From the NCBI RefSeq assembly GCF_028368995.1, contig NZ_JAQNDL010000002.1, positions 160,001 through 224,000 on the forward strand: DNA of 64,000 nucleotides, written 5' to 3'. This DNA comes from Nannocystis bainbridge (GTDB lineage Bacteria; Myxococcota_A; Polyangia; Nannocystales; Nannocystaceae). Positions 1-62,665 of this stretch are shown one piece after another. The notes under the pieces were generated by a model. It had not been told where the DNA came from and searched no databases. It saw nothing but the letters and a program-made list of their open reading frames with translations. Each line of letters starts with the position of its first letter. The stretch's first letter is position 1. Position numbers and translations under genes: made by a program.

Positions 1-85
1 TCTGGAGGGGCATGTCCCCAGGGGCATGTCTGCGGGGACATGTCTCAGAAGGGGCATGTCTGATGGGACATGTTCCAGAGGAACA
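1..85. repeat. Tandem array of 14-bp palindromic units (TGYYY-N4-RRRCA), truncated by the window edge
   Basis: CATG junctions at 11, 25, 39, 55, 69 (spacing 14,14,16,14); units such as TGTCC-CCAG-GGGCA and TGTCT-GATG-GGACA. Confidence 0.9.
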
Positions 86-174
86 GCAGCGGGCGTCACG
101 CCTGGCGGCGCCATCGCGTCACGCGTGGAGCGCGGGCGCCATCGCGTAGAGCGGCCTTCGGGGAGCGCCGGAGC

Positions 175-286
175 TGTTCACAGGGACATGCTCGATCGAG
201 CATGCCCTGGCGGGCATGTCTGAACAGACATGTCCTGGCGGACATGTCTGAACGGCCATGTCCTGGCGGACATGCCCGTTCGGGCA
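175..286. repeat. Tandem array of eight 14-bp palindromic units
   Basis: Units start at 175,189,203,217,231,245,259,273; six have perfect 5-bp inverted arms; ends 2 nt from the ggt stop codon. Confidence 0.95.
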
Positions 287-288
287 GC

Positions 289-1902
289 TCACTCGCCGCC
301 GAGGCAGACGCCGTCGCGGCGGGGGTCGCCGAAGCCGACCAGGCGGCCGTCCCGGGTGCGCTGGACGGTGTGCACGCCGCCGAAGAACATGTTGAGCTCG
401 GGCCAGGCGGTGGTGCGGGCGAACAGGCCGGCGAGGGCCTCGGCGGCGGCGGGCGAGAAGCCGGCCTCGAAGCTGACGTGGTCGTCCTCGACGTGGATCC
501 GCGGGGCGGCGATCGCCTCGGCCAGCGGCATGCCGAAGTCGAGCACGTTGGAGACGACCTGCAGGACGGCGGTGCGGATCCGCTTGGAGCCGCCGCTGCC
601 GCACACGAGCAGGCTGCCGTCGTCGCCGACGATCGCGGTCGGCGACATCATCGACGCCAGCCGCTGGTCGAGCGGCCAGGCGTGCGGGCCGGGCGGGTTC
701 ACGTCGTCCTCGCCGAGCATGTTGTTGAGCATCATGCCGGTGCCGGGCACGATCTCGCCGCAGCCCTCGCCGTTGCTGACGGTCACCGAAGCGGCGTTGC
801 CGGCGGCGTCGATGACGCTGATGTGGGTGGTGCCGCGGCTGCGCAGCGGGCCGGCCAGGGCGGCGGCGTGGGCCGCCAGCAGGTCGCCGCCGAGCCAGAC
901 CGCCTCGATGCCCTCGCGCGGCGGGCCGGCGGCCGCGCGGGCGCGCACGGTCTCGGCCTGGACGCGGGCCAGCAGGGCCGCGTGCTCGGCTGTCTGAAAG
1001 CCCATGGCCTTCGGGTCATGTCCCGAGAGCAAGGCGAGGGCAAAGGCGATCATCAGCCCGCCGGCGGCCGGCGGCGGGTTGGTCAGCAGGGTGGCGTCGC
1101 GGTAGCGCAGGCGCAGCGGGGCGCGGGCCTGGACGCGGTAGGCGGCGAGGTCGTCGGCGGTGAGGTGACCGCCGGCCTCGCGGTTCTGGCGGACGATCGC
1201 GGCGGCGACGTCGCCGCGGTAGAACAGGTCCTCGCCCTCGCGCGCGAGCTGCTCGAGCATGTCCCCGAGGACAGGATTGAAGAGGCGCGCGCCGGCCTTG
1301 GGCGGCGCCGGGGCGCCGCTCAGCGTGGCCGTGGGGTCGCCGAAGATCGCGCGCGCGGCCGGCTGCTCGAGGTAGATCGGCGCGACCAGCGTCATGAGGT
1401 ACGCCATGAACGGCGACACGGCGATGCCGTCGCGGGCAGCCTGCACGGCCGGGGCGGTGATGACGGGCATCGGCAGGCGCGCGAGCTCGCGGTGGACCGC
1501 GAACATGCCGGCGACGAGGCCCGGCGTGGCGGCGCAGCCGACCCCGACGTGGAACGCCTGCTGCGCGGTGCCCCAGTCGGTGACCACCTCGCGCGCGCAC
1601 GCCTCGGCCTGCGGCCGGCGCACCCGCGGGGTGTGCACGAAGGCGTCGTAGAGCCGCGGCTCCTGGCCGGCCGGGAGCGCGAGGATGAAGCCGCCGCCGC
1701 CGGGCGAGGCGAGCACCGGCTCGGCGACGCAGGCGGCCATCAGCGCCGCGAGCACGGCGTCGAACGCGTTGCCACCGGCCGCGAGCGCGTGCATCGCGGC
1801 CGCGGCGGTGACGGGGTGACCGGCAGCGACGCAGCCGCGGCGGTCGTGATGGATCTCGGGTGGCGTGTCCGGTGTGTAACGTGCGTGAGGGGTCGCGCGC
1901 AA
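289..1902 (-). CDS. ggt: Gamma-glutamyltransferase family protein
   Basis: GGNAFDA, EPVLASPGGGGF, autoproteolytic TTHISVID, NNMLGE, SMMSPT, GSGGSKRI and terminal DPRRDG motifs. Start codon uncertain. Confidence 0.92.
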   Translation of the reverse strand: MRATPHARYTPDTPPEIHHDRRGCVAAGHPVTAAAAMHALAAGGNAFDAVLAALMAACVAEPVLASPGGGGFILALPAGQEPRLYDAFVHTPRVRRPQAEACAREVVTDWGTAQQAFHVGVGCAATPGLVAGMFAVHRELARLPMPVITAPAVQAARDGIAVSPFMAYLMTLVAPIYLEQPAARAIFGDPTATLSGAPAPPKAGARLFNPVLGDMLEQLAREGEDLFYRGDVAAAIVRQNREAGGHLTADDLAAYRVQARAPLRLRYRDATLLTNPPPAAGGLMIAFALALLSGHDPKAMGFQTAEHAALLARVQAETVRARAAAGPPREGIEAVWLGGDLLAAHAAALAGPLRSRGTTHISVIDAAGNAASVTVSNGEGCGEIVPGTGMMLNNMLGEDDVNPPGPHAWPLDQRLASMMSPTAIVGDDGSLLVCGSGGSKRIRTAVLQVVSNVLDFGMPLAEAIAAPRIHVEDDHVSFEAGFSPAAAEALAGLFARTTAWPELNMFFGGVHTVQRTRDGRLVGFGDPRRDGVCLGGE

Positions 1903-1945
1903 CGGCGCTTGGCGCGTCGGGTAGGCGTCGGTATCCTCGCCGCCG

Positions 1946-2866
1946 ATGTCGACCCCGCATCCTGCTTCGCCCGAGGCCCGTGATCGTCTGGTGTTGGGAG
2001 TGGTCGGTGGCTCGGGGCTCTACGAGATCGAGGGGCTGCAGGAGGTCGAGCAGATCGCGCTCGAGACGCCGTTCGGACGACCGTCCGACTCCTACACCGT
2101 GGGGCTGCTGCCGCGGGACGGCGGGCTGCCGCCGGTGCGCGCGGTGTTCTTGCCGCGGCACGGGCGCGGGCACCTGTTGCTGCCGTCCGAGATCAACTTC
2201 CGCGCCAACGTCCACGGCTTCAAGCAGCTCGGCGTGACCCACCTGCTCAGCGTGTCGGCGGTCGGGTCGCTGCGCGAGGACATCGCCCCCGGCGACGTCG
2301 TCATCGCCGATCAGTTCATCGATCGCACGGCCGGTCGGGCCCAGACCTTCTTCGGCGGCGGGCTGGTCGCGCACGTGCAGATGGGCGACCCGGTCGACCC
2401 CGGCTTCTCGCGGCGGGTCGCCGGCGCGGCCGCGGCCGAGGGCGCGCGAGTCCACGAAGGCGGCACCTGCATCGTCATGGAGGGCCCGGCTTTCTCGACC
2501 CGCGCCGAGTCCAACCTGTACCGCTCGTGGGGCGCGCACGTGATCGGCATGACTGCGCTGCCGGAGGCCAAGCTGGCCCGCGAGGCCGAGATCGCCTACG
2601 CCGTGGTCGCGCTGGCCACCGACTACGACTGCTGGCACGAGGTCGAGGTCAGCGTCGAGGCCGTGATCGCGGTGGTCAAGGCCAACGTGGCGCTGTCGCG
2701 GCGGATCATCCGCCGCCTCGCGGCCGGGCTGCCCGAGGCCACCGCCGAGCTGCCGTACCCGCGCGCGCTGCAGTTCGCGACGATCACCGATCCGGCGCGC
2801 ATTCCGGCCGAGGCGCGCAGGCGGCTCGACCTGATCGCCGGCCACGTGCTGCCGCCGTCCGAATGA
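1946..2866 (+). CDS. mtnP: S-methyl-5'-thioadenosine phosphorylase
   Basis: GVVGGSGLY, FLPRHGRGH, NFRAN, EGPAFSTRAES, GMT, ATDYDCW motifs. Confidence 0.93.
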   Translation: MSTPHPASPEARDRLVLGVVGGSGLYEIEGLQEVEQIALETPFGRPSDSYTVGLLPRDGGLPPVRAVFLPRHGRGHLLLPSEINFRANVHGFKQLGVTHLLSVSAVGSLREDIAPGDVVIADQFIDRTAGRAQTFFGGGLVAHVQMGDPVDPGFSRRVAGAAAAEGARVHEGGTCIVMEGPAFSTRAESNLYRSWGAHVIGMTALPEAKLAREAEIAYAVVALATDYDCWHEVEVSVEAVIAVVKANVALSRRIIRRLAAGLPEATAELPYPRALQFATITDPARIPAEARRRLDLIAGHVLPPSE

Positions 2867-2868
2867 GA

Positions 2869-2938
2869 TGTCCCGTGGGACATGCGCCGATGGCCATGTC
2901 CCGCAGCGCCTGTCCCTACAGGCATGTCTGAACGAACA
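2869..2938. repeat. Array of five 14-bp units filling most of the mtnP-pfkB spacer
   Basis: Units at 2869 (TGTCC-CGTG-GGACA), 2883, 2897, 2911, 2925; starts 2 nt after the mtnP stop. Confidence 0.9.
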
Positions 2939-3897: not shown

Positions 3898-3938
3898 GCT
3901 GGAGCGTCGGTCCGCGAATTGCCGACTGCGCCTCGCGG

Positions 3939-4039
3939 GGGGTCCGGGGAAGGGGCGGCCGCGAGTTAACCGGCAGGATGGCTGCTCGCTCCTCGCGCCG
4001 TCCTGCCTCTAATTCGCGTCCGCCCCTTCCCCGGACCCC
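3939..4039. repeat. Long inverted repeat (~100-nt hairpin) between convergent genes
   Basis: Perfect 20-bp arms GGGGTCCGGGGAAGGGGCGG (3939-3958) and CCGCCCCTTCCCCGGACCCC (4020-4039); inner pairing continues (CGCGAGTTA/TAATTCGCG, GGCAGGATGGC/GCCGTCCTGCC). Confidence 0.85.
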
Positions 4040-4240
4040 TGGCACGGCTACAGCCGTGAGGAGCCGCCGCGCCGAGTTCGGCTTCGATGGGGAGCCTGAT
4101 CTTTGCAGCAGGACGTCGGCGTCGATGCGACGGCCAGGTCTGGCCGGCGCATCGACGCTTTCTCGCGTCCTCGCCCGGCGTGGCCCAGTCCGCGGTGCGG
4201 CCGATCTGTCGCGCGTGGCGCTGCCCTGCGGCTGCGCGGA

Positions 4241-4789: not shown

Positions 4790-5023
4790 GCGCATGACTA
4801 CCACGGATGGTGGCGCCGCCGCCGGGCCGCCGGGCGTTCGGCGTGCGAGGGCTGGCGTCGAAGGTCGCGGGCGGGCCGCTCGGCGGTGCACGGGCCCGAC
4901 GAGCCCTTCGGCGCAGCACGCGGACGGGCGGGAGGCGAAGCCCGAGCGGAGCCTTGACGGACCGAGCCGCGGGTCTCCTCGGGTCCGGTGGCCTTCGATC
5001 CGCGGCCGCGCCACGCTGCTCGC

Positions 5024-8000
5024 ATGGGCGACGCAGGGACAGCGGACCCAGCCAAGTACCTCGTCACCGGGCTGCTCCGCGAGAGCTCCGGCGCCTGCAT
5101 CTACCGCGCGGTTCGAGTCGAGGACGATCGCGCGGTGGTCATCAAGACGGTCGACCCGCGGCTCTGTCCGGCGCGGGAGCTCGAGCGGCTGCGGGCGGAG
5201 TACGAGCTCGGGCGCGCGCTGGACCTCGCGGTCACTGTCAAGCCGATCGCGCTCGACACCTATCGCGGGCTGCCGGCGCTGGTGCTCGAGCACTTCGACG
5301 GGGTGTTCCTCGAGCAGCTGCTGACGACAGAGCCGCTGGCGATCGAGCGCTTCCTGACGCTGGCGATCGCCATCGCCGGCGCGGTCGAGGCGCTGCACCG
5401 GCGCGACGTGGTCCACATGGATCTCCGGCCGGACAACATCGTGGTCGATCCGGAGCGCGGCGAGGTCAAGCTCGCCAACCTGGGGAGCCCCGGTACGCTG
5501 CAGGACGCCTCGCGGCCGGCGCAGAGCCCCGGGATCCCGACCGAATCACTGGCGTACATGTCGCCCGAGCAGACCGGGCGGCTGAACCGCCCGCTCGACT
5601 GCCGCACCGACCTTTATTCGCTGGGCGTCACGTTCTATCGGATGCTGACGGGGCGCCTACCGTTCCGCGCCCGCGATCCGCTCGAGTGGGTGCACTGCCA
5701 CCTGGCGCGACGGGTGACGCCGCCGGCGTCGCTGCGGCCGGCGGTGCCGGCGGCGGTGTCGGCGATCGTGGTCAAGCTGCTGGCCAAGGTGGCGGAGGAC
5801 CGCTACCAGAGCGCGCGCGGGCTCCGTTGCGATCTCGAGCGGTGCCTGGCCGAGTGGCGGGAGCACGGGCGCGTCGAGGCGTTCCCGCTCGGCGAAGATG
5901 ACCTGTCCGAACGGCCATCCGAGCCGCAGGAGCTGGTCGGCCGCGAGCGCGAGCTGGCCGCCCTGACCGGCGCGTTCGAGGCGATGCTCGAGACCGGCGC
6001 GCCGGGGCTGGTGTGCGTGTCGGGTTATTCGGGGATCGGCAAGTCGTCGCTGGTCCACCGGCTGCGGCGGCCGATCGCGCAGGCGCGCGGCTATTTTCTC
6101 GCCGGCAAGTTCGATCAGTACCAGCGCGGCATCCCGTACGCGACGATCTCACAGGCGTTCCGCGGGCTGGTTCACGACATCCTCGCCGAGCCGGAGGCGC
6201 GGGTGGGCGAGTGGCGCGCACGACTGACGGCGGCGCTCGGGCTGAACGCGCGGCTGTGCGTCGACATCATCCCGGAGCTGGCGCTCATCGTCGGCGAGCA
6301 GCCGCCGGTGTCGGAGCTGTCGGGGACGGAGGCGCAGCTCCGGTTTCACCGCGTGTTCCGACAATTCGTCGCGGTGTTCGCGGCCCGGGAGCATCCGGTG
6401 GCGCTGTTCCTCGACGACCTGCAGTGGGTCGATCCGGCCAGCCTCGCGCTGCTCGTCGATCTGATCACGCACCCCGACGTGCACCACTTCTTGTGGATCG
6501 CGGCGTACCGCGACAACGAGGTGACGACCGGGCACCCGTTGCTGGCGGCGCTGGACGAGGTGCGAGCGGCGAAGGTGCCGGTCCGCGTCATCGAGCTCGC
6601 TCCGCTGACCGAAGAGAACGTCGTAGCGATCGTCAGCGCGACCTTCGGCGGCCGCGTGCGCGGGGCGGAGGACCTGGCGCGGCTCGTGCACGACAAGACC
6701 GGCGGCAACCCGTTCTTCGCCTTGCAGTTCCTGAGCATGCTGCACCGGGAGGGGCTGGTCGCGCTCGACCTGTCCTCGGGGACATGGTCCGGAGACCTGC
6801 CGCGGATCCGCGCCAAGACCTCGACGAGCAACGTCGCCGAGCTGGTGGTGGGCAACCTGCAGCAGCTGTCCGCGTCGGCGCAGGAGGCCCTCGAGCTCGC
6901 CGCGTGCCTCGGCGGCGTGACCGAGGTCGAGCTGCTCGCGGCGCTCGGCGGGCGGTCCGCGGAGGCGGTGCAGGGCGACCTGAAGGCGGCGGTCCGCGCG
7001 GGCCTGATGCTGCGCGACGGCGACGCCTACAAGTTCGCGCACGACCGGGTGCAGGAGGCGGCGTTCTCCCTCATGCCGGCGCACGAGCGGGCGGCGGTGC
7101 ACCTGCGGGTCGGGCGGCTGCTGCTGGATCGCCTGTCGCACGAGCAGCTGGAGGCGCGGGTGTTCGAGGTCGCCGGTCACTTCGAGCGCGGCGGGCACCT
7201 GCTCGACGGCGCGGAGGAGCGGGTTCGGGTCGCCGAGGTCCAGCTGGCGGCCGGGCGCAAGGCGAGGGCCTCGACCGCCTACGCGGCGGCCGTGCGCTAC
7301 TTCTCGGCGGGGATCGAGCTGCTCGGGCCGGAGGCGTGGGCCGAGCAGCACGCGCTGGCGTTCGCGCTGGGGTTCGGCCAGGCCGAATGTGAGTACCTGC
7401 AGGGCCGATTCGAAGCGGCGGAGGAGCGATTCGCGGCGCTGTTCGAGCGCGCCCGCACGCGCGGCGAACGGGCGGAGATCCGGCGGGTGGAGGTCGATCT
7501 TTTCACCAGCCGGCAGGAGCTGCGCACGGCGGTCGAGCGCGGGCTCGACGGCCTGCGACTGCTCGGCGTCGAGGTGGCGCCGCACCCGACGCGGGCGCAG
7601 GTGCTGGCCGAGGTGCAGGCGATCTGGGACGCCATGGGCGAGCGACGGATCGAGGACCTGATCGATCTGCCGCCGCTCACGGACCCGGACATGCGCGCGG
7701 CGCTGGCGATCCTCGCGGTGCTGTTCGCGCCGACGCTCAACACCGATCCCCATCTGCCGGCGCTCTGTTACTGCCGCATGGTCGAGATCAGCCTCCGCCA
7801 CGGCAACGGCGACGGCTCCGCGCTCGGCTACGCGTACTTCGGGATGGTGCTGGGCCCGGCGTTCGGCCGCTATCACGCGGGCTATCGCTTCGGCGAGCTC
7901 GGGTACGCGCTGGCCGAGCGCAGCGGGGTGATGGCGTACCGCGCCAAGCTTCACTTTATCTTCGGCGATTGCATCCGCTTCTGGACGCGACACCTGCGGG

Positions 8001-19317: not shown

Positions 19318-19403
19318 TGTCGAGGTAGCGGCATGTCCACGAGGACATGTCTAAAAAGAAATGTGCTTAGGAGCATGTCGATGAAGACATGTCGAATGGG
19401 ACA
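19318..19403. repeat. Array of 14-bp units in a divergent intergenic region
   Basis: Units at 19334 (TGTCC-ACGA-GGACA), 19348, 19362, 19376, 19390, preceded by a 16-bp variant. Confidence 0.9.
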
Positions 19404-19600: not shown

Positions 19601-20002
19601 ATGGGTGAGGACCACCAGCTCAGCGACTCGCAGCTCGGCCTGCTGCGGATCTTGTGGGGCCGCGGCGAGGCGACGGCGCTCGAGGTGCACGCCGTTCTGG
19701 CCGAGGGGGACCTCGGGCTCGCGCCGACCACCGTGTCGACGATGCTGTCGCGGCTGGAGAAGAAGGGGCTCCTCGCCCACCGAACGGAGGGCCGGCAATT
19801 CATCTATCGCGCGCTCGTCTGCGAGGCGGATGTGCGGCGGTCGATGCTCGGTCGGGTCACTGATTTTTTCTTCGGCGGGGACGTGCCATTGCTGGTCAGT
19901 CACCTCGTCGAGGGCCGCGGCGTCGATCCGGACGACCTCGCGCGCCTGCAACAATGTTTGGCGGAACGATCCGGTGAAGCTGAGGAACACGACGATGCTT
20001 GA
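19601..20002 (+). CDS. BlaI/MecI/CopY family repressor
   Basis: LRILWGRGEAT...LAPTTVSTMLSRLEKKGLL...GRQFIYRAL...FFGG. Confidence 0.93.
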   Translation: MGEDHQLSDSQLGLLRILWGRGEATALEVHAVLAEGDLGLAPTTVSTMLSRLEKKGLLAHRTEGRQFIYRALVCEADVRRSMLGRVTDFFFGGDVPLLVSHLVEGRGVDPDDLARLQQCLAERSGEAEEHDDA

Positions 20003-22203: not shown

Positions 22204-22273
22204 TGTCGGAAGGGACATGCTCGTGAGAGCATGTCCCTTTATTTATGGTCGAAGGGGCATGCCCGATGGGGCA
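22204..22273. repeat. Array of five 14-bp units
   Basis: Units at 22204, 22218 (TGCTC-GTGA-GAGCA), 22232, 22246, 22260 (TGCCC-GATG-GGGCA); starts 10 nt after the M56 stop. Confidence 0.9.
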
Positions 22274-23114: not shown

Positions 23115-23218
23115 TGCTTCATGGGACATGTAGAGAGGCATGTTTGATAGGACATGTCTTTAAGGGCATGTCTTTGGAGGCGTCGAATAATGTCCTTAAG
23201 GACATGTTCCGAAGGTCA
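23115..23218. repeat. Array of about seven 14-bp units in a divergent intergenic region
   Basis: Units at 23115, 23129 (12-bp variant), 23141, 23155, 23169, an 8-nt gap, then 23191 (TGTCC-TTAA-GGACA) and 23205. Confidence 0.9.
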
Positions 23219-23538: not shown

Positions 23539-25962
<2,424 letters not shown>

Positions 25963-27160: not shown

Positions 27161-27198
27161 CTCGCGGGCGCCTGGCGCGCTCGCTCATGAAACCGAGA

Positions 27199-27282
27199 TG
27201 TCCGAAAGGACATGTTTGATGAGGCATGTCGCTTCGAGCATGGCTCTTCGGACATGCCTGAACAGGCATGTCCGAAAGCCCA
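27199..27282. repeat. Array of six 14-bp units between convergent genes
   Basis: Units at 27199 (TGTCC-GAAA-GGACA), 27213, 27227, 27241, 27255 (TGCCT-GAAC-AGGCA), 27269. Confidence 0.93.
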
Positions 27283-33177: not shown

Positions 33178-33275
33178 TGTCCGAGCGGGCATGTCCCGAA
33201 GGGCATGTCTCGAAGGGCATGTGTTGGAGGGCATGCCCGAAAGAGCATGTTTGAAAGGACATGTTCAAAAGGCGA
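33178..33275. repeat. Array of seven 14-bp units
   Basis: Units at 33178,33192,33206,33220,33234,33248,33262; loops include CGAA x2 and GAAA x2; starts 3 nt after the rlmH stop. Confidence 0.95.
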
Positions 33276-35459: not shown

Positions 35460-35722
35460 GCCAGCGGCCGGCGAGGGCGCGGTGGCCGGCCGAGCGAGCG
35501 GGACGCCGAGGTGGAGCGTACCTGTCCGATGGGACAGGCCGAATCCGATGTTTGCGAGGTCGTCCGCTCGCGCGATCGTGACGCCGCGATCGTCGCCGCA
35601 GGTCTGCTCGTGGTGCGGCCGCCGGTCGAGCGAGCAGCTCGCCGGGGAGCTCTGCAGGCCCGGGCGCCCGGGTTGCGAGAGGTGCTGTCGCGGTTCTGCG
35701 GCAGCGGTCGCGTGGGGCCGCA

Positions 35723-35783
35723 GGACATGTCTGTTTGGATATGTGCGAATGGACATGTCGTCATGAACATGTCCTGAGTTTTC
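35723..35783. repeat. Array of about four 14-bp units
   Basis: Junctions at 35726, 35740, 35754, 35768 (14-bp period); a solo perfect unit lies at 35523-35536. Confidence 0.85.
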
Positions 35784-36869: not shown

Positions 36870-36939
36870 TGGCGCTCAGGGCATGTCCGAAGACACAGGG
36901 CCTTTCAGGCATGCCCTTTCGGACATGCCCGAAACGCCA
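36870..36939. repeat. Array of five 14-bp units filling a convergent intergenic gap
   Basis: Units at 36870,36884,36898,36912,36926; 5 nt and 7 nt from the two flanking stop codons. Confidence 0.88.
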
Positions 36940-37420: not shown

Positions 37421-38587
37421 TCAGCGGGGCCCGAGCCCGAACTGCAGCGCGAGCTCCAGCCCGAGCGACAGCTCGAGGCCGCCGACGCGGAAGCGGGGCA
37501 CGCCGACCGCGTCGGCCAGGCCGACCACCCGCGGCCCGTCGTGGTCGTCGATCCCGAAGCTGCCGCCGAGCTCGATCCGCGGGCCCACGCGCAGGCCGAG
37601 CCGCGGCGACGGCCGAGCCCGCCAGCCCGGCGACAGCCGCAGGAACCCGCCCAGCAGCGGCGGACGGGCCACCGTGTCGTCGTCGCCCGACGCCGCCAGC
37701 GGCGCTCGCTCGCCCGCGCGCGTGACCCACCACGGCTCGATCGCCAGCCCGACCAGGATCGGCAGCTCGAACCGACCGCGGCGCAGGGCGTAGCCGGCCG
37801 CGATCGCCACGCGCAGGCGGCCGAGGCCGACCCCTGCCTCGGCCTGGCCGATCGCGCGGGTCTCGAGCGCCGCGGCGAGGCCCCGCGGACTGCGGACCTC
37901 GAGGCCGAGCCCGCCGCCGCCGCCGCCCAGGGCGCCGCCGTACGCTGGCGGACCGAGGCCGAGCACCGCCGCGGCGTGCAGGCCGACGCCGAGCTCCCAG
38001 CGTGGCCGATCGGACATGTCCTTTTGGACCTGCGCTTTTGGGCCTGTCTCTTCGGCCATGTCGAGGGGCGGCGACGGCTCGGGAGGTGGCGGCTCCGGCG
38101 GGGCCGGCTCGGGTGGCACCAGCTCGGGAGCGGCTGCGGGCGGTGGGATCGCCACGTCCTCCTGGTCGGGGATCACCGCGCCTTGCTCGACGGCGAAGAT
38201 CAGGTTCGCGGCGGTGCTGGCGACCACGCGGACCTCTTGCCCGATCTCGACCGCGAAGCTGCGCTCGTACGCGCGGCCGTCGGAGGTGATCACGCGGATC
38301 GTCCCGCGGTCGTCGGCGGCGCGGGTGAGCTGGAGATAGAGGTACGGCGCCTCGGTCGGGGCCGCGCCGCCGTGGCGCTCGATCGGCAGCCGCGGCAGGC
38401 GCAGGGCCAGGGCCGCCAGCACGGCGGCCTCGTCGAACCCGCGGATGTCGGCCCGCGCGGCCCGGAACTCTTGCGGCTCGCCGGTTGTCGCGTCACCTGT
38501 CCCCGGGGACATGCCCGAAGCGACACCCGGCTCGGCCGCGGGGGCGACCAGCACCGTGACGAGCGCGCATGTCGAGGCGAGGAGCAC
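37421..38587 (-). CDS. Exported protein with Pro-rich linker and C-terminal beta-barrel-like domain
   Basis: Signal peptide, PEPAPPEPPPP linker, alternating Gly/hydrophobic strands ending LELALQF. Confidence 0.7.
   Translation of the reverse strand: MLLASTCALVTVLVAPAAEPGVASGMSPGTGDATTGEPQEFRAARADIRGFDEAAVLAALALRLPRLPIERHGGAAPTEAPYLYLQLTRAADDRGTIRVITSDGRAYERSFAVEIGQEVRVVASTAANLIFAVEQGAVIPDQEDVAIPPPAAAPELVPPEPAPPEPPPPEPSPPLDMAEETGPKAQVQKDMSDRPRWELGVGLHAAAVLGLGPPAYGGALGGGGGGLGLEVRSPRGLAAALETRAIGQAEAGVGLGRLRVAIAAGYALRRGRFELPILVGLAIEPWWVTRAGERAPLAASGDDDTVARPPLLGGFLRLSPGWRARPSPRLGLRVGPRIELGGSFGIDDHDGPRVVGLADAVGVPRFRVGGLELSLGLELALQFGLGPR
38003..38058. repeat. Intragenic array of four 14-bp units
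   Basis: Units at 38003, 38017, 38031, 38045, inside the linker DMAEETGPKAQVQKDMSD. Confidence 0.8.
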
Positions 38588-39605: not shown

Positions 39606-40699
39606 GGCGTCTCCCCGCCGGCGAGGGCGGCGTCGGCTTGCTTGCGGTGGGCGCCGGTCGGGTGGTGCTCGAGATAGTCCTGCCAGCAGGCAGCGCGGGC
39701 GTCGGCGGGGCTGCGACGGCACAGACCGGCGCGCGCGTCGTCGGCGAAGCGGCCGGCGGGGAAGCGGCCCAGGTACTCGCGCCACGCGGCGGCCTGGCCG
39801 TCGCCGCCGCGCAACTGGCGGGTCAGCGCGAACAGATCGCCGTAGGCCAGCTCGGCCCGCGCGCCGGCGCCGGGCAGGGCGAGGATCTCCCGGAACTTGC
39901 GCTCGGCGGCCGCGAGCTCGCCCTTCTGCCACAGCTGTTGCGCCTCGTCCTCGAGCGACAATCCGGGCGCGGCGTCCTCCTGCGACTTGCGCCGGCGGGG
40001 GCCGTCCTTGGCGAGGGCTTTGCGCGGGCGCGTTTCGTCCGGGACGTCGACAGTCGGTGATGTCCCTCGGGACATGTCCTCGGGGGCACTTTCACGTGTC
40101 GTTTTGGGCATGTCCTGGGGGACATTCGTGACTGTCTCTTGGGACATGTCATTCCGGTCCGCGGCCCGCTCGGCGGCGCCGTCGGTGTGGACCTCGGTGG
40201 TGCCGCCGAAGCGCGCCTCGCCGTGACGCCCGCCCGCGCCGTCGAGGGCCGCCGCGGTGCCGCGCTCGCCGGCCCGCTCGGCCACGAGATCGGGGCCGAC
40301 GACGGCGAGCAGCACGGCCGCGGCGAGGGCCGCGACGACGCCGAACACCACGCCGAGGCGGCGGCGCCCGGGGACGGGGGCCGGCGGGATGCTGGCCAGG
40401 CGCCGCTCGGCCAGCTTGCCGTCGAGCTCGGCCTTCAGCGCGGTGGTGAACGGCGCCAGCGCCCCGGCGTCGCCGCGCCCGTGGCCCGGCGCGAGCGGGA
40501 CCACGGGCGGCAGGACGCCGGCGCGCGCGACCGCGTCGGCCGGGACGGCGGCGGGGTCGAGCTCGCGGGCGCGGGCCAACATGGCCGCAAAGTCAGGTGC
40601 GGGTCGGGCCCTGGCGACCAGGCGATCGAGGTGCTCGGCGGTGTCGCGGGCGAACGGCGCGAGCGCGGGCGGGGTGCCGTCTTCGTCATGCGTCGCCAT
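39602..40699 (-). CDS. Putative anti-sigma factor: single TM plus C-terminal TPR-like domain
   Basis: Overlaps the ECF sigma stop; TM LGVVFGVVAALAAAVLLAVV; C-terminal YLGRFPAGRFADDA and YLEHHPTGAH repeats. Confidence 0.75.
   Translation of the reverse strand: MATHDEDGTPPALAPFARDTAEHLDRLVARARPAPDFAAMLARARELDPAAVPADAVARAGVLPPVVPLAPGHGRGDAGALAPFTTALKAELDGKLAERRLASIPPAPVPGRRRLGVVFGVVAALAAAVLLAVVGPDLVAERAGERGTAAALDGAGGRHGEARFGGTTEVHTDGAAERAADRNDMSQETVTNVPQDMPKTTRESAPEDMSRGTSPTVDVPDETRPRKALAKDGPRRRKSQEDAAPGLSLEDEAQQLWQKGELAAAERKFREILALPGAGARAELAYGDLFALTRQLRGGDGQAAAWREYLGRFPAGRFADDARAGLCRRSPADARAACWQDYLEHHPTGAHRKQADAALAGGETP
40061..40150. repeat. Intragenic array of 14-bp units with 36-nt super-period
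   Basis: Units at 40061, 40075, 8-nt gap, 40097, 40111, 8-nt gap, 40133; 14+14+8 = 12 codons. Confidence 0.85.
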
Positions 40700-42774: not shown

Positions 42775-43058
42775 GGATCGTTCTCCTGAACATGTCCCTC
42801 GGGACAGGGCGGTGATTCGCCCGTCCGGGGCTCGGCGTCGGGAGCATGGTCGGCAGCGCGAGGCGGGCAAGTGATTTGGTGACGGTCGAAGCGCGGCGCG
42901 CCGTGCGACGATGCGACTTCGACGCGGTCCGCCTGCGAAACCGTTGTACCGCGGTGGCAGGGTCCGCTCGGGTGATCGGACCGGACTCGGCCTCGTGCGG
43001 CGCCGCGGCCACGCCGTCCGCGCGGACGGCGTGGCGTGCTCGACTGCCGCGCCCGGGC

Positions 43059-43916
43059 TCAGGTCACCAGCTCGGCGAAGATCCGCAGCATCGGTTCGGT
43101 GAACAGCGGCGACGGCAGGATCGTGCCGCCGAGGGCCCACGCGCGCGCCAACGGCAGCGGCCAGCGGCGCACTCCCAGCGGGCCCTCGACCGCCAGCAGC
43201 AAGCCCTGCAGCGAGAAGAACGCGGCCGTCCGCACGACCATGTCGAGGTCGAGCGCGGCGGCGACGATCCAGGTGTGGAGGGCGACGCTGACGGCGAAGG
43301 CGAGCGCGAGGCCGGCGCCGGGGCGGCCGCGGCGCGCCAGCGGGACGAAGCAGTGCTGCCGGAGCCAGCGGTTGACCACGAGGTTCCAGCGCTCGCCCCA
43401 GAAGTCGCGCAGGCTGCGGGCGAGGATCGGGTGGCGCTGGACCGGCGGCACGCGGGCCCCGAGCAGGCGGCCGATGCCCTCGAGCAGGCCGGCGGCGGTC
43501 TCGGCGAAGCCGTAGAGGAAGGCGCAGCCGGCCAGCCAGCGCAGCGGCAGCCCGCCGACCTGCGGGGCCAGGACGACGCCTGTCCACAAGGACATGAACA
43601 TAAAGACAGCCGCGGCCGCGGTCCGCGACCACACCGCGGGGTCGAAGCGCGGCGGGACCCACTCGCAGCGGCGGCTGTCGACGATCGCCAGCACGTGCAC
43701 GACCCGGCGCAGCGGGCTGAACTCACGCGGCTCGCGGGCGAGGTCGATCAGGCGCGCGAAGCCCCAGAACGCCAGCGCCGCCAGGAGCGCGCGGGAGAAC
43801 GGGGTGCTGGCGGCGAACGGGGCGAGGAACGCGGGCAGGGCGACGCACAGCCCGAGCGCGCGCCGCAGCGGCGAACCAGCGGTCACGAGGGCGGCGAGGA
43901 CGAGGAGCGCGAGCAT
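43059..43916 (-). CDS. Membrane-bound O-acyltransferase (wax-synthase type MBOAT)
   Basis: Multi-TM; PILARSLRDFWGERWN and FAVSVALH motifs. Confidence 0.85.
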   Translation of the reverse strand: MLALLVLAALVTAGSPLRRALGLCVALPAFLAPFAASTPFSRALLAALAFWGFARLIDLAREPREFSPLRRVVHVLAIVDSRRCEWVPPRFDPAVWSRTAAAAVFMFMSLWTGVVLAPQVGGLPLRWLAGCAFLYGFAETAAGLLEGIGRLLGARVPPVQRHPILARSLRDFWGERWNLVVNRWLRQHCFVPLARRGRPGAGLALAFAVSVALHTWIVAAALDLDMVVRTAAFFSLQGLLLAVEGPLGVRRWPLPLARAWALGGTILPSPLFTEPMLRIFAELVT

Positions 43917-48773: not shown

Positions 48774-48857
48774 CACCCGAACGGACATGTCACGGAGGAC
48801 ATGTCGCATGGGCTATGTCGCCGAGGACATGTCCATATCAACATGTCCTCGACGCCA
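48774..48857. repeat. Array of six 14-bp units
   Basis: Junctions at 48786,48800,48814,48828,48842,48856; 11 nt from the stop at 48869. Confidence 0.9.
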
Positions 48858-51186: not shown

Positions 51187-51270
51187 TGTCCTGAAGGACA
51201 TGTCGTGGAGAGCATGGCCTTCGAGGCATGTCGCAGGGAGCATGCCCTTCGGGGCATGTCCCGACGGTCA
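51187..51270. repeat. Array of six 14-bp units between tamA-like and DUF1684 genes
   Basis: Units at 51187,51201,51215,51229,51243,51257; two TTCG loops; the last unit contains the tamA stop codon. Confidence 0.93.
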
Positions 51271-55401: not shown

Positions 55402-58400
55402 GGCGCAGCTCGAGCGAACGCTGGCGGAGAGGGTCGAAGATGATGCGCTCGTTGAAGTAAGAGCGGCGGTTGTCGCGGAACTCGAGGACGGCGGAGTCGA
55501 GCAGGCGGAAGCGGACGCGCCAGTCGTAGCTGTTGCGCAGGAGCAGGCCCGGGTAGCCGCGGGTGTAGCCGGCGCCGATCGTCATGTTGCCCCAGTCGGT
55601 GCGGAACCACGGGCGCGGGGTCTCGGCGTTGACCTCGACGCCGAGCTGACCGAGCTGGGCGCCGACCTGCGGCAGGTAGGGGGCGAGGCGCGGGACCGAC
55701 TTCTCGACGTAGCGGTTGAGGTTGATCTCGGTGAGGTTGCCGACCAGGCCGAGCGGGCGCCCGAGCAGGCCGCCGGAGCCGTAGCGGCGGACGTTGGCGT
55801 CGGCGACCTCGCGGTTGCCGCTGCCGAGGATGGCGTAGTCGACACACTCGCGCTGGGTCCGGCTGCGCGCGCGCGTGTCGCCGAGCACGGCGCAGCGGAA
55901 GGTGATGGCGTCGAGGGTGCCGCCGAGGATCAGCGACATCTGCCGCGGCTGGTTCTCGATGTAGACCGGCTCCTGCCGCTGGGCGCGGACGTCGACCTTG
56001 CTCGACGACAGGTTGTTCTCGAGCAGGACGCGGCCGAAGGTGATGTCGTAGGCGCCGTTGAGGATGGCGACGTCGAGCACGCCGGCGGTGACGTCGACGC
56101 GGCCCGACATCTCGAGGTCGGCGATCGAGCCGCCGATCGCCAGCGAGACCTGACCCTCGACGCCCTTCATGATGTTGTTGTCGACCCGGAATGGCGTGGT
56201 CGTGCGGAGCCGGAGGTCGAGGTTCATGTCGCGCAGGATCTCGGGCGGCGGAGCGGACGGCGCGGAGCTCGGATCGGCGAAGGATAGCACCTTGACGCCC
56301 TGCTGCGCGTCGCGCACCCAGCGGCCGCGCGCGACCTGCACGTCGCCGCGCAGGGTCTGGACGTCGCGCCCCTCGAGGACGATGCCCTTGCCCGAGATCG
56401 CCGCGTAGAGCTGCGGGCGACCCGAGTTGTCGAACATCTTGTACTGCACCTCCTCGAGGTCGACCCGCAGGCTGCTGCTCTCGAGGCGCGAGAAGTCGGG
56501 CGCGAGCACGACGTTGCCCCACAGCGACAGCGAGCCGCGGTCGCCGACGCGGGCCGCGAGGTGGCCCTCGGGCGCGACGAGGTCGTCGATCGCGGCCGTG
56601 CGACCGCCGACGATCACCGCGAAGCCTTCCTGCTTGCCCGGGCACGGGTCGGACTCGTTGCAGCGCTGGATCTCGATCACGCCGTTGTCGAGCTCGATCG
56701 CCTCGAGGCCGAGGCCCGCGAGCTCCATCATCAGGCCGCCGGGCGCGGGCTGCAGGCGGGCGCGCACGGTCTTGAGATCGAGGCTGTCGCCGACGCGGCC
56801 GGCGGCGTGGGCGTCGGCGATCTGCAGGCCGCCCGAGCTGGCCGCGAAGGTGTCGGGCAGGAACTCGCGCAGCAGCCGACCGTCGAGGCGGCCGCGCGCG
56901 GCGGCGGAGAAGCTGCCGCCGCACTCGCCGCCGAGCACGTAGAAAGTGCGGTGGCCGTTGAGGTCGCCGAACTGCACGGTCTGGCCGCGCACCGACAGCT
57001 CGCCCGAGGCGAGCAGGGCGTCCTGGGCCCACTGCAGCGACAGCTTGGGCACGGCGAAGGTGGTGCCGGCGGCCTTGGCGGTGACGGGCTTCTGCGGGTC
57101 GGGGACGCTGAAGCTGCCGGTGATGATCGGGTCGCTGACGTGGCCGTCGAGCTTGACGTCGAGGCCGATCTTGCCGGCGATGCCGGACACGGCGGTGCCG
57201 GCGACGAAGGGGTGGAGGCCGGCGAGGTCGAGCTCGCCGGCGACGCGGGCGCTGGCGCCGGTGGCCGGGGGCGTGCGCGCGGCGGTGGGCGGCTCGCTGC
57301 AGTCGCGCTTCTCGTCCTTCTTCGGCGCCTCGGGCGAGGCCGACAGCTCGACGTCGCCGGACACGGTGAGGGTCTTGCCGACGGCGACGCCGCCCGAGCG
57401 CAGCTCCCAGCCGTCGCGCAGGCTGAGGCGCGTGCCCTGCAGGGTGGCGACCAGGCGGTTGGCGGTGCACAGCGAGTCGGACTCGCGGCACGGGTCGCCG
57501 GGCAGGTTGCTGCCGGCGGCGACGCCCGAGCTCGGCGAGCGACCGGCGGCCCACAGGCGATCGAGCTCGACGAGGATCTTGAGGTCGCGGTCGCCCTGGT
57601 CGTCGTGCCACAGGCACGAGGTGATCAGCGGCTGTCCCGGAGGACAGGTACGGGCTGTGACCGTCAGGCCCTCGGCCTGGCCGTGCAGGCCCTCGCCGGG
57701 CTCGATGCCTGCGGCGCCGAGGAGGTTGCGCAGCGGCAGGTTGGCGAAGTGGACCGCGAGGTCGGCGGCGTACGGCGGGCCGGCCTTGCTGCCGCGCGGC
57801 TTCTCGCCGATGGCGACGATGGCGTCGACGTCCCACTCGTACGGGGCGCGGCGCCGGCGGCCGCCGTCGTCGCCGAAGCGGCCCTTGACGACGATCTCGC
57901 GCCGCGCGGCCAGGCCGTCGCCGGCGGGGCGGTCGTTGCTGTCGAGCTGCAGCTCGCCGCTGCCGAGCGGGATGCCGACGGCGTTGATGGCGGTCAGCTC
58001 GACGGTGCCGTGCACGCTCGGGCGCGTCAGCGTGCCGGTGATCTCGAGGTCGGTGCCGCGATCGATCTGGGCCCCGGCGGGCAGGTCGGTGAGGCCGGCG
58101 ATCGCGGCGAAGGTGCTGATCGGCAGGCGGCGGCCGCTGATCTTGAGGTCGAGCTGCGGGTCGCTGTCGAAGCTGACCGAGCCCTTGCCGGTCAAGGAGC
58201 CGACCGGGACGGTGAGGTCGGGCGCGGCCGAGGGGCTGGGCCGGCGGTGCTGGCGGGCCACGAACTCGTCGATGTTGACGCCGTCGCGGGTGAGGCTGAA
58301 GCGGGCCTCGGTGTCGCGCAGCTCGCCGTGGCCGACCTTGAGCTCGGGCACCGAGGCGGCGCCGCGGGCCTGGAATTTGGAGAGCGGGACCGGGCGCTTG

Positions 58401-61687: not shown

Positions 61688-61842
61688 GCGGGATCGAGTG
61701 TGGCCCAATCTCGCGGGACGGCGCTGCTAAATCCGTGGCGCCCGCGAGGGGCGATCCGCGGCGTCGCGTGCTCGCCGCGCGGCGTGCAGGAGGGCGAGCC
61801 TCGGCGCGCTCAGCCGCAGCGGGCGCGGCCGCTTCGCGGCAC

Positions 61843-61879
61843 AAAAAAAGAAGGGCCCGTTCGTGAGAACGGGCCCTTC
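61843..61879 (-). terminator. Rho-independent terminator of the tRNA
   Basis: 13-bp stem GAAGGGCCCGTTC/GAACGGGCCCTTC, 4-nt loop, then T7 on the - strand. Confidence 0.92.
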
Positions 61880-61884
61880 AAGAG

Positions 61885-61958
61885 TAGCGGGGACGGGATT
61901 TGAACCCATGACCTCCGGGTTATGAGCCCGGCGAGCTACCTGGCTGCTCCACCCCGCA
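61885..61958 (-). tRNA. Initiator tRNA-fMet (CAT)
   Basis: TGCGGGGTGGAGCAGCCAGGTAGCTCGCCGGGCTCATAACCCGG...TTCAAATC...CCCCGCTA; three G-C pairs in the anticodon stem, 1:72 mismatch; CCA not encoded. Confidence 0.96.
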
Positions 61959-61970
61959 GCGAGGACTTGC

Positions 61971-61999
61971 CTTGTACTTCTCTGGCGTCGGCGCGTCAA
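61971..61999 (-). promoter_or_regulatory. Sigma70 promoter of the tRNA
   Basis: TTGACG (61999-61994), 17 nt, TACAAG (61976-61971), 12 nt upstream of the tRNA. Confidence 0.65.
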
Positions 62000-62101
62000 C
62001 GAAATTGTGTTGGCCCTCGGTCGATTTGGATCTGGGCATGGGGCGAAATCGCGCAGAGAGGGTCTCGAGACAGGGGACAGGCGGGGCCTGGTGGTCCTGA
62101 A

Positions 62102-62665
62102 TCAGCGAATTGGCCCCGGATCGGGCTCGCGGGCGAGGTCGGCGAGGTCGACGCGGACGGGCGAGAGATCCCCGGTACCGTCCGCACGATCCCAGAGGGT
62201 CGCCAGGACGGCGAGCGGCTGATTGACGGCGTCGAGGCGCAAGACGCTCTCCCGCGGCGGCGGGCCCGCGGTGAAGTTGAGGGGGCAGTGGTCGACGCGC
62301 GGGGTGGGGTCGGCGACGGCGACCGGCAGGCCGTGCGAGCGGCAGATCAGCGGGCGCTCGGCGTAGACGGCGCAGGCGCCATCTACGAGGAGGGCGCAGT
62401 GGTGCTGGTGAGCCGGGTCGTCGGCTTGCTCGCGGACCCTGTTCCGAAGGACAGGTGTCCGGACGGACAGGTCGGCCAGCGCGCGACGGATGGGCTCGGC
62501 CTCGGCGGCGTAGACGCCGAAGCGGTGGTGACAGCAGCTGTCGCAGCCCGCGCGACAGGCGAAGGCCGCGGGGGTGCGCGCCTCGGCGGCGGCGAAGTGG
62601 GCGTCGACGCGGCCGCGCAGCTGGACGAGGATGGCCGCGAGGGCAGGTCGGTCCGGGTCGCTCAC
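62102..62665 (-). CDS. YkgJ-family cysteine cluster protein
   Basis: CRAGCDSCC, CALL, CAVYAERPLICRSHG, CPLNF. Confidence 0.9.
   Translation of the reverse strand: MSDPDRPALAAILVQLRGRVDAHFAAAEARTPAAFACRAGCDSCCHHRFGVYAAEAEPIRRALADLSVRTPVLRNRVREQADDPAHQHHCALLVDGACAVYAERPLICRSHGLPVAVADPTPRVDHCPLNFTAGPPPRESVLRLDAVNQPLAVLATLWDRADGTGDLSPVRVDLADLAREPDPGPIR

Follow-up and report, generated by a model that had tools for sequence, protein, structure and literature searches.

Among the closest described systems are the REP/BIME elements (the REPIN-RAYT system of Enterobacteria, Pseudomonas and Stenotrophomonas), which are short, G+C-rich palindromes present in hundreds to thousands of copies and which, according to the published account (PMC3733652), lie mostly downstream of genes in convergent or unidirectional contexts, are often clustered and lineage-specific, and have predicted RNA folds. 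Another is the HIP1 palindrome (GCGATCGC) of cyanobacteria, described (PMC5861425) as lineage-specific, in 15- to 300-fold excess and conserved both in ORFs and between them, its function being open. The repeat analysed here resembles the REP of E. coli, yet our search of the accessible literature for it returned no description. The original prediction spoke of an undescribed code; the adjective agrees with this search, but the wording as a whole is overstated, because palindromic repeat families that hug stop codons are already known as a class.

The repeat is a 14-bp palindrome that occurs in thousands of copies, both as abutting stacks just past gene ends and as scattered intragenic copies. 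In the window, i.e. the entire 64,000-nt stretch of Nannocystis DNA that was analysed, the exact form TGTCC-N4-GGACA is found at all 17 of the coordinates originally given for it, compared to 0.06 expected copies (mean of 100 dinucleotide-preserving shuffles, with a maximum of 2). All 12 predicted arrays were likewise confirmed, with 2 to 7 consecutive CATG cores keeping strictly to the 14-bp register, but two clusters had been missed (38010-38065 and 40049-40150). The G+C content of the window, estimated by eye at about 74%, is 72.1%, and the units are not exclusively intergenic: 9 of the 28 strict units of the window lie within gene calls, among them the one at 51187, where the ORF start is overcalled. 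The features of the window, none of which is assigned a strand, are the following (G001, G005 and G007 denote comparison genomes):

1..85, array with 4+2 CATG cores in two registers, running off the left edge of the window
175..286, array with 7 cores, immediately past the stop codon of a gamma-glutamyltranspeptidase gene (289-1902, minus strand); contains a 28-bp (two-unit) tandem duplication of 91% identity
1260..1273, exact unit within the gamma-glutamyltranspeptidase gene; identical in G005 and G007
2869..2938, array of 5 units, beginning 2 nt past the stop of a PNP/UDP phosphorylase gene and ending 18 nt ahead of the start of a pfkB-family kinase gene; all five units are common to Nannocystis pusilla (L013), G005 and G007
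6771..6784, exact unit within a kinase/histidine-kinase gene (4988-10723); the G005 and G007 versions are diverged and of equal length, hence the difference came by substitution
19318..19403, array of about 6 units, the gap being divergent by the gene calls; a small uncalled gene may lie after it
22204..22273, array just past the stop of an M56/BlaR1-like gene (19605-22193), in convergent context; the orthologous arrays of G005 and G007 have other unit numbers
23115..23218, array upstream of the longest-ORF start of a YceI-like gene (22385-23155, minus strand) and also upstream of a histidine kinase gene (23539-25962); its flanks, sought in G005 and G007, gave no match
27199..27282, array filling the convergent gap between a hydrolase gene (26009-27160, plus strand) and a terpene synthase gene (27290-28267, minus strand); in G001 and G007 it stays with the terpene synthase gene
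33178..33275, array with 6 cores and a predicted RNA fold of z = -6.6; the orthologues in G005 and G007 have a common register and different spacers
35523..35536, exact unit; an orthologous match was sought and none retrieved
35723..35783, short array with 3 cores across 4 unit lengths
36870..36939, array filling the convergent gap between a NuiA-domain gene (36013-36864, plus strand) and a gene at 36947-37387 (minus strand)
38010..38065, degenerate 4-unit stretch within an ORF call (37421-38587), one of the missed clusters
38498..38511, exact unit; one half-site position is changed in G005 and G007, where the degenerate consensus still applies
40049..40150, the other missed cluster; a 36-bp repeat here carries the exact units 40061 and 40111
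42793..42806, exact unit; the G005 and G007 versions are degenerate
43581..43594, exact unit within an MBOAT-family gene; identical in G005 and G007
48774..48857, array with 5 cores; in G005 and G007 several separate short unit clusters occupy the orthologous gap of 238-326 bp
51187..51270, array just past the stop of an Omp85-family gene (51268-55401, minus strand); the gap in G005 and G007 has separated single units and no contiguous array
57633..57646, exact unit within a 1971-aa gene (55373-61288); identical in G005 and G007
62456..62469, exact unit within a CxxCxxCC-domain gene (62102-62665)

The suggestion that the family is chromosome-wide proved correct. The 11-Mb genome contains 1987 copies of TGTCC-N4-GGACA and 988 phased arrays, and the strict units (19 to 99 per full 250-kb bin) are spread evenly along all five contigs. 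Pairs of CATG cores occur 3736 times at a distance of 14 bp, 2073 times at 28 bp, 1586 at 42 bp, 751 at 56 bp and 383 at 70 bp, compared to 72 at 13 bp, 262 at 15 bp and about 100 at other distances. An unbiased scan of the periods of all 256 tetramers ranks period 14 of ACAT, ATGT and CATG highest; the other strong periods are all multiples of 3 and thus point to coding repeats. The geometry of the unit is rigid: the start-to-start distance from TGTCC to GGACA is 9 in the 1987 cases, 8 in 16 and 10 in 5, with at most 19 cases at any remaining distance within 5-22, and GGACA directly abuts TGTCC in 956 cases and lies one base wider in 11.

The half-sites behave as a weight matrix rather than as a stem. 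No compensatory changes between them were found, and they vary independently, with mutual information of 0.008-0.013 bits for the pairing columns of 2770 unit pairs; in oriented arrays, C/A mismatches at the Y/R column number 87, exactly as expected under independence (87). Strict units exhibit some T-A/C-G covariation at this column (odds ratio 2.8-3.0), which could be due to the mixing of array and non-array units. The spacer disfavours A at position 1 and T at position 4, a bias with two-fold symmetry that extends to the intragenic units, where transcription runs one way only. Spacers are nearly all distinct, the commonest accounting for 87 of 2770, in accordance with the earlier view that period and symmetry are conserved rather than sequence. 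Adjacent units have the same spacer in 4.5% of cases versus 1.2% at random, and there is some local duplication of units within arrays. Enrichment is confined to the paired, N4-spaced form, as TGTCC alone, with paired units excluded, is barely enriched (12351 versus 7356 expected). The logos of array ends reveal one further TGYCC half-site and nothing else conserved beyond it, which identifies the unit as an interrupted palindrome, found also singly, and upholds the claim that the arrays have no termini, target duplications or cargo in common.

The arrays sit at the 3' ends of genes. Per 100 kb of gap there are 78 arrays between convergent, 22 between tandem and 6.3 between divergent genes (a 12-fold difference between the convergent and divergent classes), and at least one 9-of-10 unit is present in 62% of convergent and 20% of divergent gaps, all these counts being approximate because the gene calls come from a crude GC3-based ORF filter, which covers 76% of the genome and makes starts over-long. 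The array usually starts within about 20 bp of the stop codon (median 26 bp, lower quartile 9 bp), and in 233 of 317 tandem cases the stop is nearer to it than the next start is.

About 30% of the strict units lie in genes. In trimmed coding sequence (7.18 Mb) there are 644 exact units compared to 20.2 +/- 3.4 after synonymous-codon shuffling, a 32-fold excess, and to 4.8 expected from codon-order shuffling, while scrambled control palindromes occur 1 to 13 times. For the 8 aligned coding units of the window, with phase-matched controls, the motif positions are identical in 77/80 versus 401/480 cases in G007 (Fisher p = 0.0018) and in 72/80 versus 398/480 in G005 (p = 0.14), and the unit is retained in 6/8 and 5/8 cases, respectively, versus about 1.3 expected. 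The five-unit array after the PNP gene differs from that of N. pusilla at 6/50 half-site and 10/20 spacer positions (counted manually on the two sequences); since in orthologous arrays the half-sites are kept and the spacers have diverged, the arrays themselves look constrained. The number and arrangement of units at orthologous arrays differ between close species.

Units are present in three genera of one family, and phased arrays only in the genus of the window. A search for the three-unit pattern gave 240 matches in this genome, 81 to 143 in each of five other large congeneric genomes and 0 for the reversed control, and arrays are also seen in the isolate record Nannocystis pusilla Na p29 (L013), so that a locus-restricted feature or an assembly artefact is not what was found. 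The sister genera g2 and g4 have mostly single units (87-169 and 67-696 per genome) and no three-in-phase arrays. The restriction of the units to this lineage fits a dedicated reader.

We propose, with a probability of roughly 0.4, that the units are recognition sites of a putative dimeric sequence-specific factor, which would polymerise on the arrays at gene ends. Whereas the motif, its rigid geometry, its excess in and between genes, its conservation, its 3'-end placement and its taxonomic range are observed, we infer a protein as the reader, its action on duplex DNA, its polymerisation and its role at gene ends. The consensus TGYCC-N4-GGRCA would be read by a factor restricted to a small clade of the Nannocystis-containing family, with the two 5-bp half-sites recognized independently at a fixed distance, most simply by a dimeric protein of the helix-turn-helix type. 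The half-site centres are 9 bp apart, and the resulting 5-4-5 layout is also that of FNR-type sites. Selection would keep single sites across the chromosome, genes included; in the window's genus they may have multiplied into abutting arrays, partly via slippage of one or two units. An array would thereby offer 3 to 20 sites, one per 14 bp, so that successive dimers would stand 120 degrees apart around the helix. Arrays would persist nearly only where promoters are unharmed, i.e. directly past stop codons and chiefly between convergent genes, and the coated array and/or its stable RNA hairpins could act as a two-way barrier to transcriptional read-through or as a protector of the 3' end. The 3'-end location is, however, equally expected for RNA hairpins or for any tolerated selfish or drifting palindrome. 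As for the identity of the reader, 59 small genes have an upstream unit in a non-3' context and include one MarR, one ArsR, one TetR and one response regulator, about the background level. PadR, whose ATGT-N8-ACAT operator is similar to the unit, had 0 matches in the genome in a search that was positive in 14/14 controls.

It is possible, though rather doubtful, that the units matter instead as hairpins in 3' untranslated RNA, in the manner of REP/BIME. Adjacent decamers would pair across the 4-nt loop, the hairpins would block 3'-to-5' exonucleases or aid termination in a 72% G+C genome, where U-tracts are hard to form, and the common sequence would be a legacy of the spread of the element, with no reader. 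The proximity to stop codons and the strong enrichment between convergent genes agree with this explanation, and so do the predicted structures, whose stems of 9-13 bp closed by 4-nt loops are very stable (z -2.6 to -6.6 in 6 folds). A 20-kb test region held 6 canonical hairpin-plus-T-run terminators where 4.3 are expected, hence no enrichment, and 2 of these 6 are arrays; the array at 2869-2938 lies within a likely operon, like REPs of E. coli. Transposase-less REP families and intragenic REPs are on record (PMC3733652). The raw difference in stability between the strands tracks replication skew and not transcription, as the sense strand is the more stable one in 76/87 arrays if G-rich and in 34/120 if C-rich. 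With the skew regressed out, the sense strand folds better by 0.026 kcal per nt in 207 tandem arrays (t = -4.2), which hints at an RNA-level or transcription-linked effect; in 431 convergent arrays there is no such offset. On the other hand, compensatory covariation is lacking and C/A mismatches are not avoided, the loop of exactly 4 is far more rigid than structure alone demands, a hairpin in the 644 intragenic units would have no 3'-end role, and the arrays are not followed by a U-tract or T-run. Pure structure also fails to account for the persistence of a single sequence in three genera. No Rfam match was found for the units.

We consider it unlikely that the unit is a hyper-abundant palindrome of the HIP1 or uptake-sequence type, kept frequent everywhere by a genome-wide pressure (chromosome organisation, a preference in DNA uptake or recombination, or a repair bias), with arrays as jobless by-products of slippage that persist only where they do least harm. 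The intragenic excess and conservation do recall those of cyanobacterial HIP1 (PMC5861425). The even spread of units, the predominance of single units in the sister genera and the evident duplication of units would also be accounted for; however, arrays look constrained rather than jobless and a unit is present in most convergent gaps. Lone half-sites are barely enriched, unlike uptake sequences. Moreover, Vsr-type repair does not track the motif: its genes were matched in 1/7 genomes of g1 (not counting the window's own genome, which also had no match), 0/5 of g2, 0/7 of g4 and 3/7 of g26.

A MITE or REPIN spread by a transposase encoded elsewhere is very improbable. The REP/BIME-like element with a remote enzyme that had been put forward agrees with the position at gene 3' ends, mostly convergent ones, and high copy number, palindromic build and the shifts of unit number between close species would suit such an element, but no RAYT/Y1 transposase was found in the genome (the same search was positive in 6/14 controls) and no family of genes was met repeatedly next to the units (of 70 genes flanked on both sides, only 2 weak pairs emerged). 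Array ends have no GTAG/CGTC tag, conserved termini or target duplication, and no insertion sequence with matching terminal repeats was found. Copy-and-paste spread is further disfavoured by the diversity of spacers and by the intragenic units, since inserting 14 bp into a gene would change its reading frame; one of these units arose through substitution. A self-DNA mark, suggested by the earlier reader, is a further candidate, neither favoured nor disfavoured by these results. Least probable is a region-specific nucleoid or segregation site like matS, Noc-binding sites or parS. Noc-binding sites do share the 14-bp palindrome format and phased arrays would suit spreading, but the units number thousands rather than tens and their density has no link to ori or ter. 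Our best guess is a polymerising DNA-binding protein of another kind than the matS/Noc/parS readers.

Compared to REP/BIME, the Nannocystis units are similarly palindromic, clustered, lineage-specific and located 3' of genes, with predicted RNA folds, but the unit is 14 bp long (20 with flanks) rather than 20-40 bp and lacks the GTAG/CGTC tag and RAYT, the spacers vary freely, the arrays are strictly phased and abutting where REP/BIME form inverted doublets with variable linkers, and a substantial share of strict units is intragenic and conserved there. HIP1, reportedly tied to two methyltransferases (PMC4390886), is comparable in its coding excess and conservation; however, it is an uninterrupted octamer without phased gene-end arrays, whereas the Nannocystis unit is interrupted and phased. 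The DUS of Neisseria and the USS of Pasteurellaceae form genus or family "dialects" of thousands of copies, intragenic and in inverted pairs that double as terminators, but they are asymmetric words enriched singly, whereas in Nannocystis only the paired form is enriched. The TRIT motif of Mycobacterium and other stop-codon-hugging repeats of high-G+C bacteria are, like the Nannocystis repeat, conserved-sequence hairpins at gene 3' ends, in genomes poor in U-tracts, but they are much longer single hairpins without 14-bp phasing and are not known to be in excess inside genes. Finally, the met-boxes of MetJ, the heptads of the omega protein and ParR/parC are short symmetric sites with a fixed sub-helical period, on which dimers stack cooperatively round the helix; such arrays serve a handful of promoters or centromeres, whereas those of Nannocystis, with their postulated reader, occupy about 1000 gene ends.

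The family of palindromic units is real, genome-wide and restricted to one lineage. All 17 positions at which the original prediction placed the exact unit (TGTCC-N4-GGACA) are correct, against a mean of 0.06 in 100 dinucleotide shuffles, and its 12 arrays consist of CATG cores that succeed each other in a strict 14-bp register. In the whole assembly of Nannocystis bainbridge (11.05 Mb in five contigs, G+C 71-72%) the exact unit occurs 1987 times, and the 14-bp phasing claimed for the window is evident in the distances between CATG tetramers, with 3736 pairs at 14 bp compared to 72 at 13 bp and 262 at 15 bp, and further peaks at 28, 42, 56 and 70 bp. A blind scan of all tetramers at any period returned this 14-bp CATG family at the top, while the remaining strong periods were all multiples of three. 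With an array defined as a chain of phased CATGs comprising at least three cores, the genome contains 988 arrays, the longest of which has 16 cores over 20 unit lengths, and the array consensus is GGRCATGYCC followed by a 4-nt spacer that is richer in A+T.

The CATG core is a product of the junction between abutting units. The unit itself is an interrupted palindrome, as originally proposed, because the logos of 1242 array ends reveal one further TGYCC half-site beyond the last spacer (and no conserved position past it), and because solitary TGTCC-N4-GGACA elements are present in relatives and within genes. Its length is 14 bp, or about 20 bp if the preferred flanks are counted. The geometry is rigid: genome-wide, the spacer measures 4 nt in 1987 pairs, 3 nt in 16 and 5 nt in 5, and units abut directly in 956 cases and lie one base apart in 11. 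Most spacers in one array are unrelated to each other; identical neighbouring spacers amount to 4.5%, compared to 1.2% for random pairs, and duplications of 28 bp are also visible.

Genes were called by a GC3-based ORF filter, which covers 76% of the genome and yields over-long starts, and the arrays are distributed with respect to these calls as follows.

Table. Location of arrays relative to GC3-based ORF calls
Convergent gaps: 431 of 988
Tandem gaps: 317 of 988
Divergent gaps: 39 of 988
Within called ORFs: 200 of 988
Contig edge: 1 of 988

Of the 200 arrays within ORFs, 96 fall in the initial 10% of the ORF and are therefore probably overcalls of the start. Per 100 kb of gap, the density of arrays is 78 in convergent, 22 in tandem and 6.3 in divergent gaps, and the fraction of gaps with at least one unit, if one half-site mismatch is allowed (9 of 10 positions), is 62%, 33% and 20%, respectively. 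The median distance from an array to the stop codon is 26 bp (lower quartile 9 bp), in 233 of the 317 tandem cases the array is nearer to the stop than to the following start codon, and several convergent gaps are filled by an array that begins 4 bp past one stop and ends 4 bp short of the other. The idea of segregation sites fares poorly, with no bias of density relative to ori/ter and 2828 strict units spread over all five contigs (19-99 per full 250-kb bin).

The intergenic picture drawn in the original prediction missed the units inside genes. The exact unit occurs 644 times in 7.18 Mb of trimmed coding sequence, which also holds 813 of the 2828 strict units, and this excess withstands shuffling that preserves codons (20.2 +/- 3.4 copies expected from synonymous-codon and 4.8 from codon-order shuffles); six control palindromes of like composition are present there in 1 to 13 copies each. 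The coding units are spread evenly along the gene length, occupy the three reading frames in 389, 188 and 70 cases, and in the window are located in genes with Pfam support. At the eight coding units that could be aligned, motif positions are identical to those of the related genome G007 in 77 of 80 cases, compared to 401 of 480 phase-matched neighbours (p = 0.0018), and to those of another relative, G005, in 72 of 80 compared to 398 of 480 (p = 0.14). An intact unit is retained at six of these eight sites in G007 and at five in G005, with about 1.3 expected. The coding unit at 6771 is perfect in N. bainbridge only, and its orthologues differ through substitutions, without an insertion.

Intergenic arrays can likewise be followed among relatives. 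The PNP/UDP phosphorylase of the window has its closest named record in Nannocystis pusilla Na p29 (88% amino-acid identity), and the array downstream of this gene is made up of the same five units there as well as in G005 and G007; by hand count on the sequences, the half-sites differ at 6 of 50 positions and the spacers at 10 of 20. The array downstream of the terpene synthase gene is retained in two relatives (G001 and G007) with changed spacers, and the hydrolase gene that faces it has no array beside it in four relatives, where its neighbour differs. The hydrolase and terpene synthase genes, convergent neighbours in the window (26009-28267), are non-syntenic in G001, G003, G005, G007 and G010: 10 kb separates them in G001, and in the remaining four they are distant from each other or on different contigs; therefore, their junction was created by rearrangement. 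The number of units varies between orthologous gaps, and the contiguous array at 51187 corresponds to separated single units in G005 and G007.

Arrays are not confined to this locus or this genome. A three-unit pattern was found in nine of ten other genomes of the genus (81-143 copies in each of five genomes that are large and closely related, 0-5 in another five that are smaller, more distantly related or fragmented), with no occurrence of the reversed control pattern, and was absent from all 20 genomes of other genera. A census of the exact unit in 61 genomes, in which the reversed control gave 0-10 copies, covered a wider range.

Table. Exact units per genome
Genus of the window, g1 (seven genomes besides N. 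bainbridge): 333-2090
Sister genus g2: 87-169
Sister genus g4: 67-696
14 other genera of the family: 0-20

A sample of 260 kb from a g4 genome contains 31 strict units, single or paired, of which 12 are in genes and many others adjoin stop codons. Since g2 and g4 carry the unit mostly singly, the unit predates the arrays, which only the window's genus has. We considered that sister genera might have repeat dialects of their own, but samples of G011 (166 kb) and G013 (99 kb) yielded only periods that are multiples of three, as opposed to samples of equal size from N. bainbridge, and the same word was later found in these genera as single units. In a sister-genus genome (G067, contig C3, about 257.0-257.4 kb) the unit is part of a longer repeat (about 80-150 bp, conserved flanks), of which there are four consecutive copies.

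The genes of the window are ordinary for a myxobacterial chromosome (Ser/Thr and histidine kinases, an Omp85-family protein, prepilin peptidase, RsfS, a sigma factor), with Pfam matches in 23 of the 33 ORFs scanned. The sequencing runs in which the window occurs come from soil metagenomes. Other features of the window are listed below.

Table. Further features of the window
61885-61958, minus strand: tRNA gene, the sole feature of the window that reaches an Rfam gathering score
3898-4200: dispersed repeat, about 260 bp long and containing an internal hairpin of about 100 nt, unrelated to the 14-bp unit
21519-21627 and 21910-22038: in-frame coding minisatellites with 9-bp and 21-bp units, within an M56/BlaR1-like gene
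41598-42252: in-frame coding minisatellite, a long run of 18/30/33-bp units

The repeat at 3898-4200 has 13 more whole or partial copies in the genome (71-92% identity), and G005 and G007 hold dozens of copies as well; it reaches the gathering score of no Rfam family and could be a MITE or a gene for a small RNA.

The position of the arrays raises the question of whether they act as DNA or as RNA. Several observations speak for a role in RNA at gene ends: the predicted array hairpins are very stable, the arrays coincide with 3' untranslated RNA, canonical terminators are not locally enriched, and one array (2869-2938) lies within a probable operon, as REPs do in E. coli. However, hairpin pairing arises from the consensus alone, with no covariation between pairing columns and no avoidance of C/A mismatches, the loop length is fixed, and the units are conserved inside genes. 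Furthermore, there is no T-run downstream of 207 oriented arrays (T makes up 13-17% of 60 nt). GNRA and UUCG loops are no commoner in oriented arrays than their complements. The raw difference in folding between sense and antisense strands tracks the strong replication G/C skew; with the skew regressed out, the sense strand is better by 0.026 kcal per nt (t = -4.2), an offset that convergent arrays do not exhibit. This residual advantage could equally well reflect selection at the RNA level or mutation linked to transcription. As to the skew itself, it amounts to 5-10% across all contigs and switches sign near 4.3-4.5 Mb of C1 and 1.5 Mb of C3, and genes do not favour the G-rich strand (620 vs 667 in a one-in-five sample). 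Because of the absent covariation, the fixed loop, the missing T-run and the conservation within genes, we favour a sequence-specific reader acting on duplex DNA, with which an RNA role at gene ends would be compatible.

The boldest reading, to which we give a probability of roughly 15%, is that the clade around Nannocystis evolved a dedicated dimeric DNA-binding protein with a private 14-bp word. Such a protein would polymerise along the phased arrays that directly follow the stop codons of about 1000 genes or gene pairs, forming a roadblock that ends or insulates transcription in both directions, and would organise the nucleoid through about 2000 solitary sites, both genic and intergenic. 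If true, this would be the bacterial equivalent of termination by bound proteins such as mTERF in mitochondria and Reb1 in yeast.

Several candidates for a reader or mobiliser were tried and set aside. The RAYT/HUH partner envisaged originally did not materialise, as the PF01797 profile has no match in the 90%-complete genome (the control was positive in 6 of 14 genomes), and no gene family recurs among 70 genes with units on both sides. PadR, whose operator presumably resembles the unit, is rejected by the lack of PF03551 matches in the genome (control positive in 14 of 14). The decamer GGRCATGYCC equals the p53 half-site, and among the matches listed for papers containing GGACATGTCC no bacterial repeat was named, the top ones being p53 work; the p53 DNA-binding domain (PF00870) and mTERF (PF02536) have no matches in the genome and likewise none in any control genome, so that their absence carries no weight. 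Autoregulation (nothing recurrent among 59 small genes that have a unit upstream) and a repair bias driven by Vsr, whose distribution is uncorrelated with the motif-bearing genera, were also discarded. A search for transposon ends, by 22-nt inverted matches from the half-site 0.4-4 kb apart, returned only array-array pairs and fold-backs at contig ends. The ends of contigs C1 (about 4.522-4.535 Mb) and C2 (about 3.028-3.032 Mb) hold long, perfect inverted duplications, with sequence in common between the two contigs; these are genuine long inverted repeats or else fold-back artefacts of the assembly.

The clear distribution over g1, g2 and g4 is the best handle on the reader gene. The gradient from single units to arrays over these three genera makes it findable by phylogenetic profiling, and because cultured Nannocystis strains exist, mapping of 3' ends and pull-downs are feasible. 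The ends of transcription units in very G+C-rich bacteria are poorly understood, U-tract terminators being hard to build there, and why certain lineages are saturated with a single short palindrome, as with REP, HIP1 or uptake sequences, has been an open question for decades. The arrays are also likely break points in short-read assemblies of these genomes, which are rich in natural products.

With respect to known families, several can be dismissed briefly. CRISPR arrays have unique spacers of about 30 bp and cas genes, as opposed to 4-nt spacers at about 1000 loci here; matS, Noc-binding and parS sites number tens in one domain; uptake sequences (DUS/USS) are asymmetric words enriched singly, whereas here it is the N4-spaced pair that is enriched, other spacings being at background. 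An intrinsic Rho-independent terminator would match the predicted hairpin but not the absence of a U-tract, and a MITE is contradicted by the lack of conserved termini, target-site duplication and transposon ends, by the diverse spacers and by coding copies that arise through substitution. We found no description of such a repeat family from Nannocystis or other myxobacteria in open-access papers and preprints. Cognate orphan DNA methyltransferases serve as a criterion for HIP1-like palindromes. Work on HIP1 describes a conserved excess both in and between genes (PMC5861425). The present family shares with HIP1 a coding excess beyond codon usage and conservation above the surroundings (at eight coding sites), but differs in having phased arrays. 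By location, downstream of genes and mainly in convergent and tandem gaps, it belongs to the REP/BIME kind. REP/REPIN palindromes are imperfect, 20-40 bp long and able to form a hairpin, the length here being 14 bp or, with flanks, about 20 bp. However, the GTAG/CGTC end tag of REPs is lacking from the array-end logos, the extragenic restriction is not shared, and the cognate Y1 HUH transposase of the REPIN-RAYT system, whose gene usually has REPs on either side, was not found in the genome. The consulted parts of a REP survey put on record REPs within genes and a REP superfamily without transposase, and do not mention myxobacteria (PMC3733652). What sets the family apart from REP/BIME is the tiny unit, the strict phasing, the variation resembling that of a weight matrix and the conserved copies in genes, so that traits usually separate, namely REP-like placement, HIP1-like coding excess and operator-like rigid 14-bp phasing, are joined in a single family.
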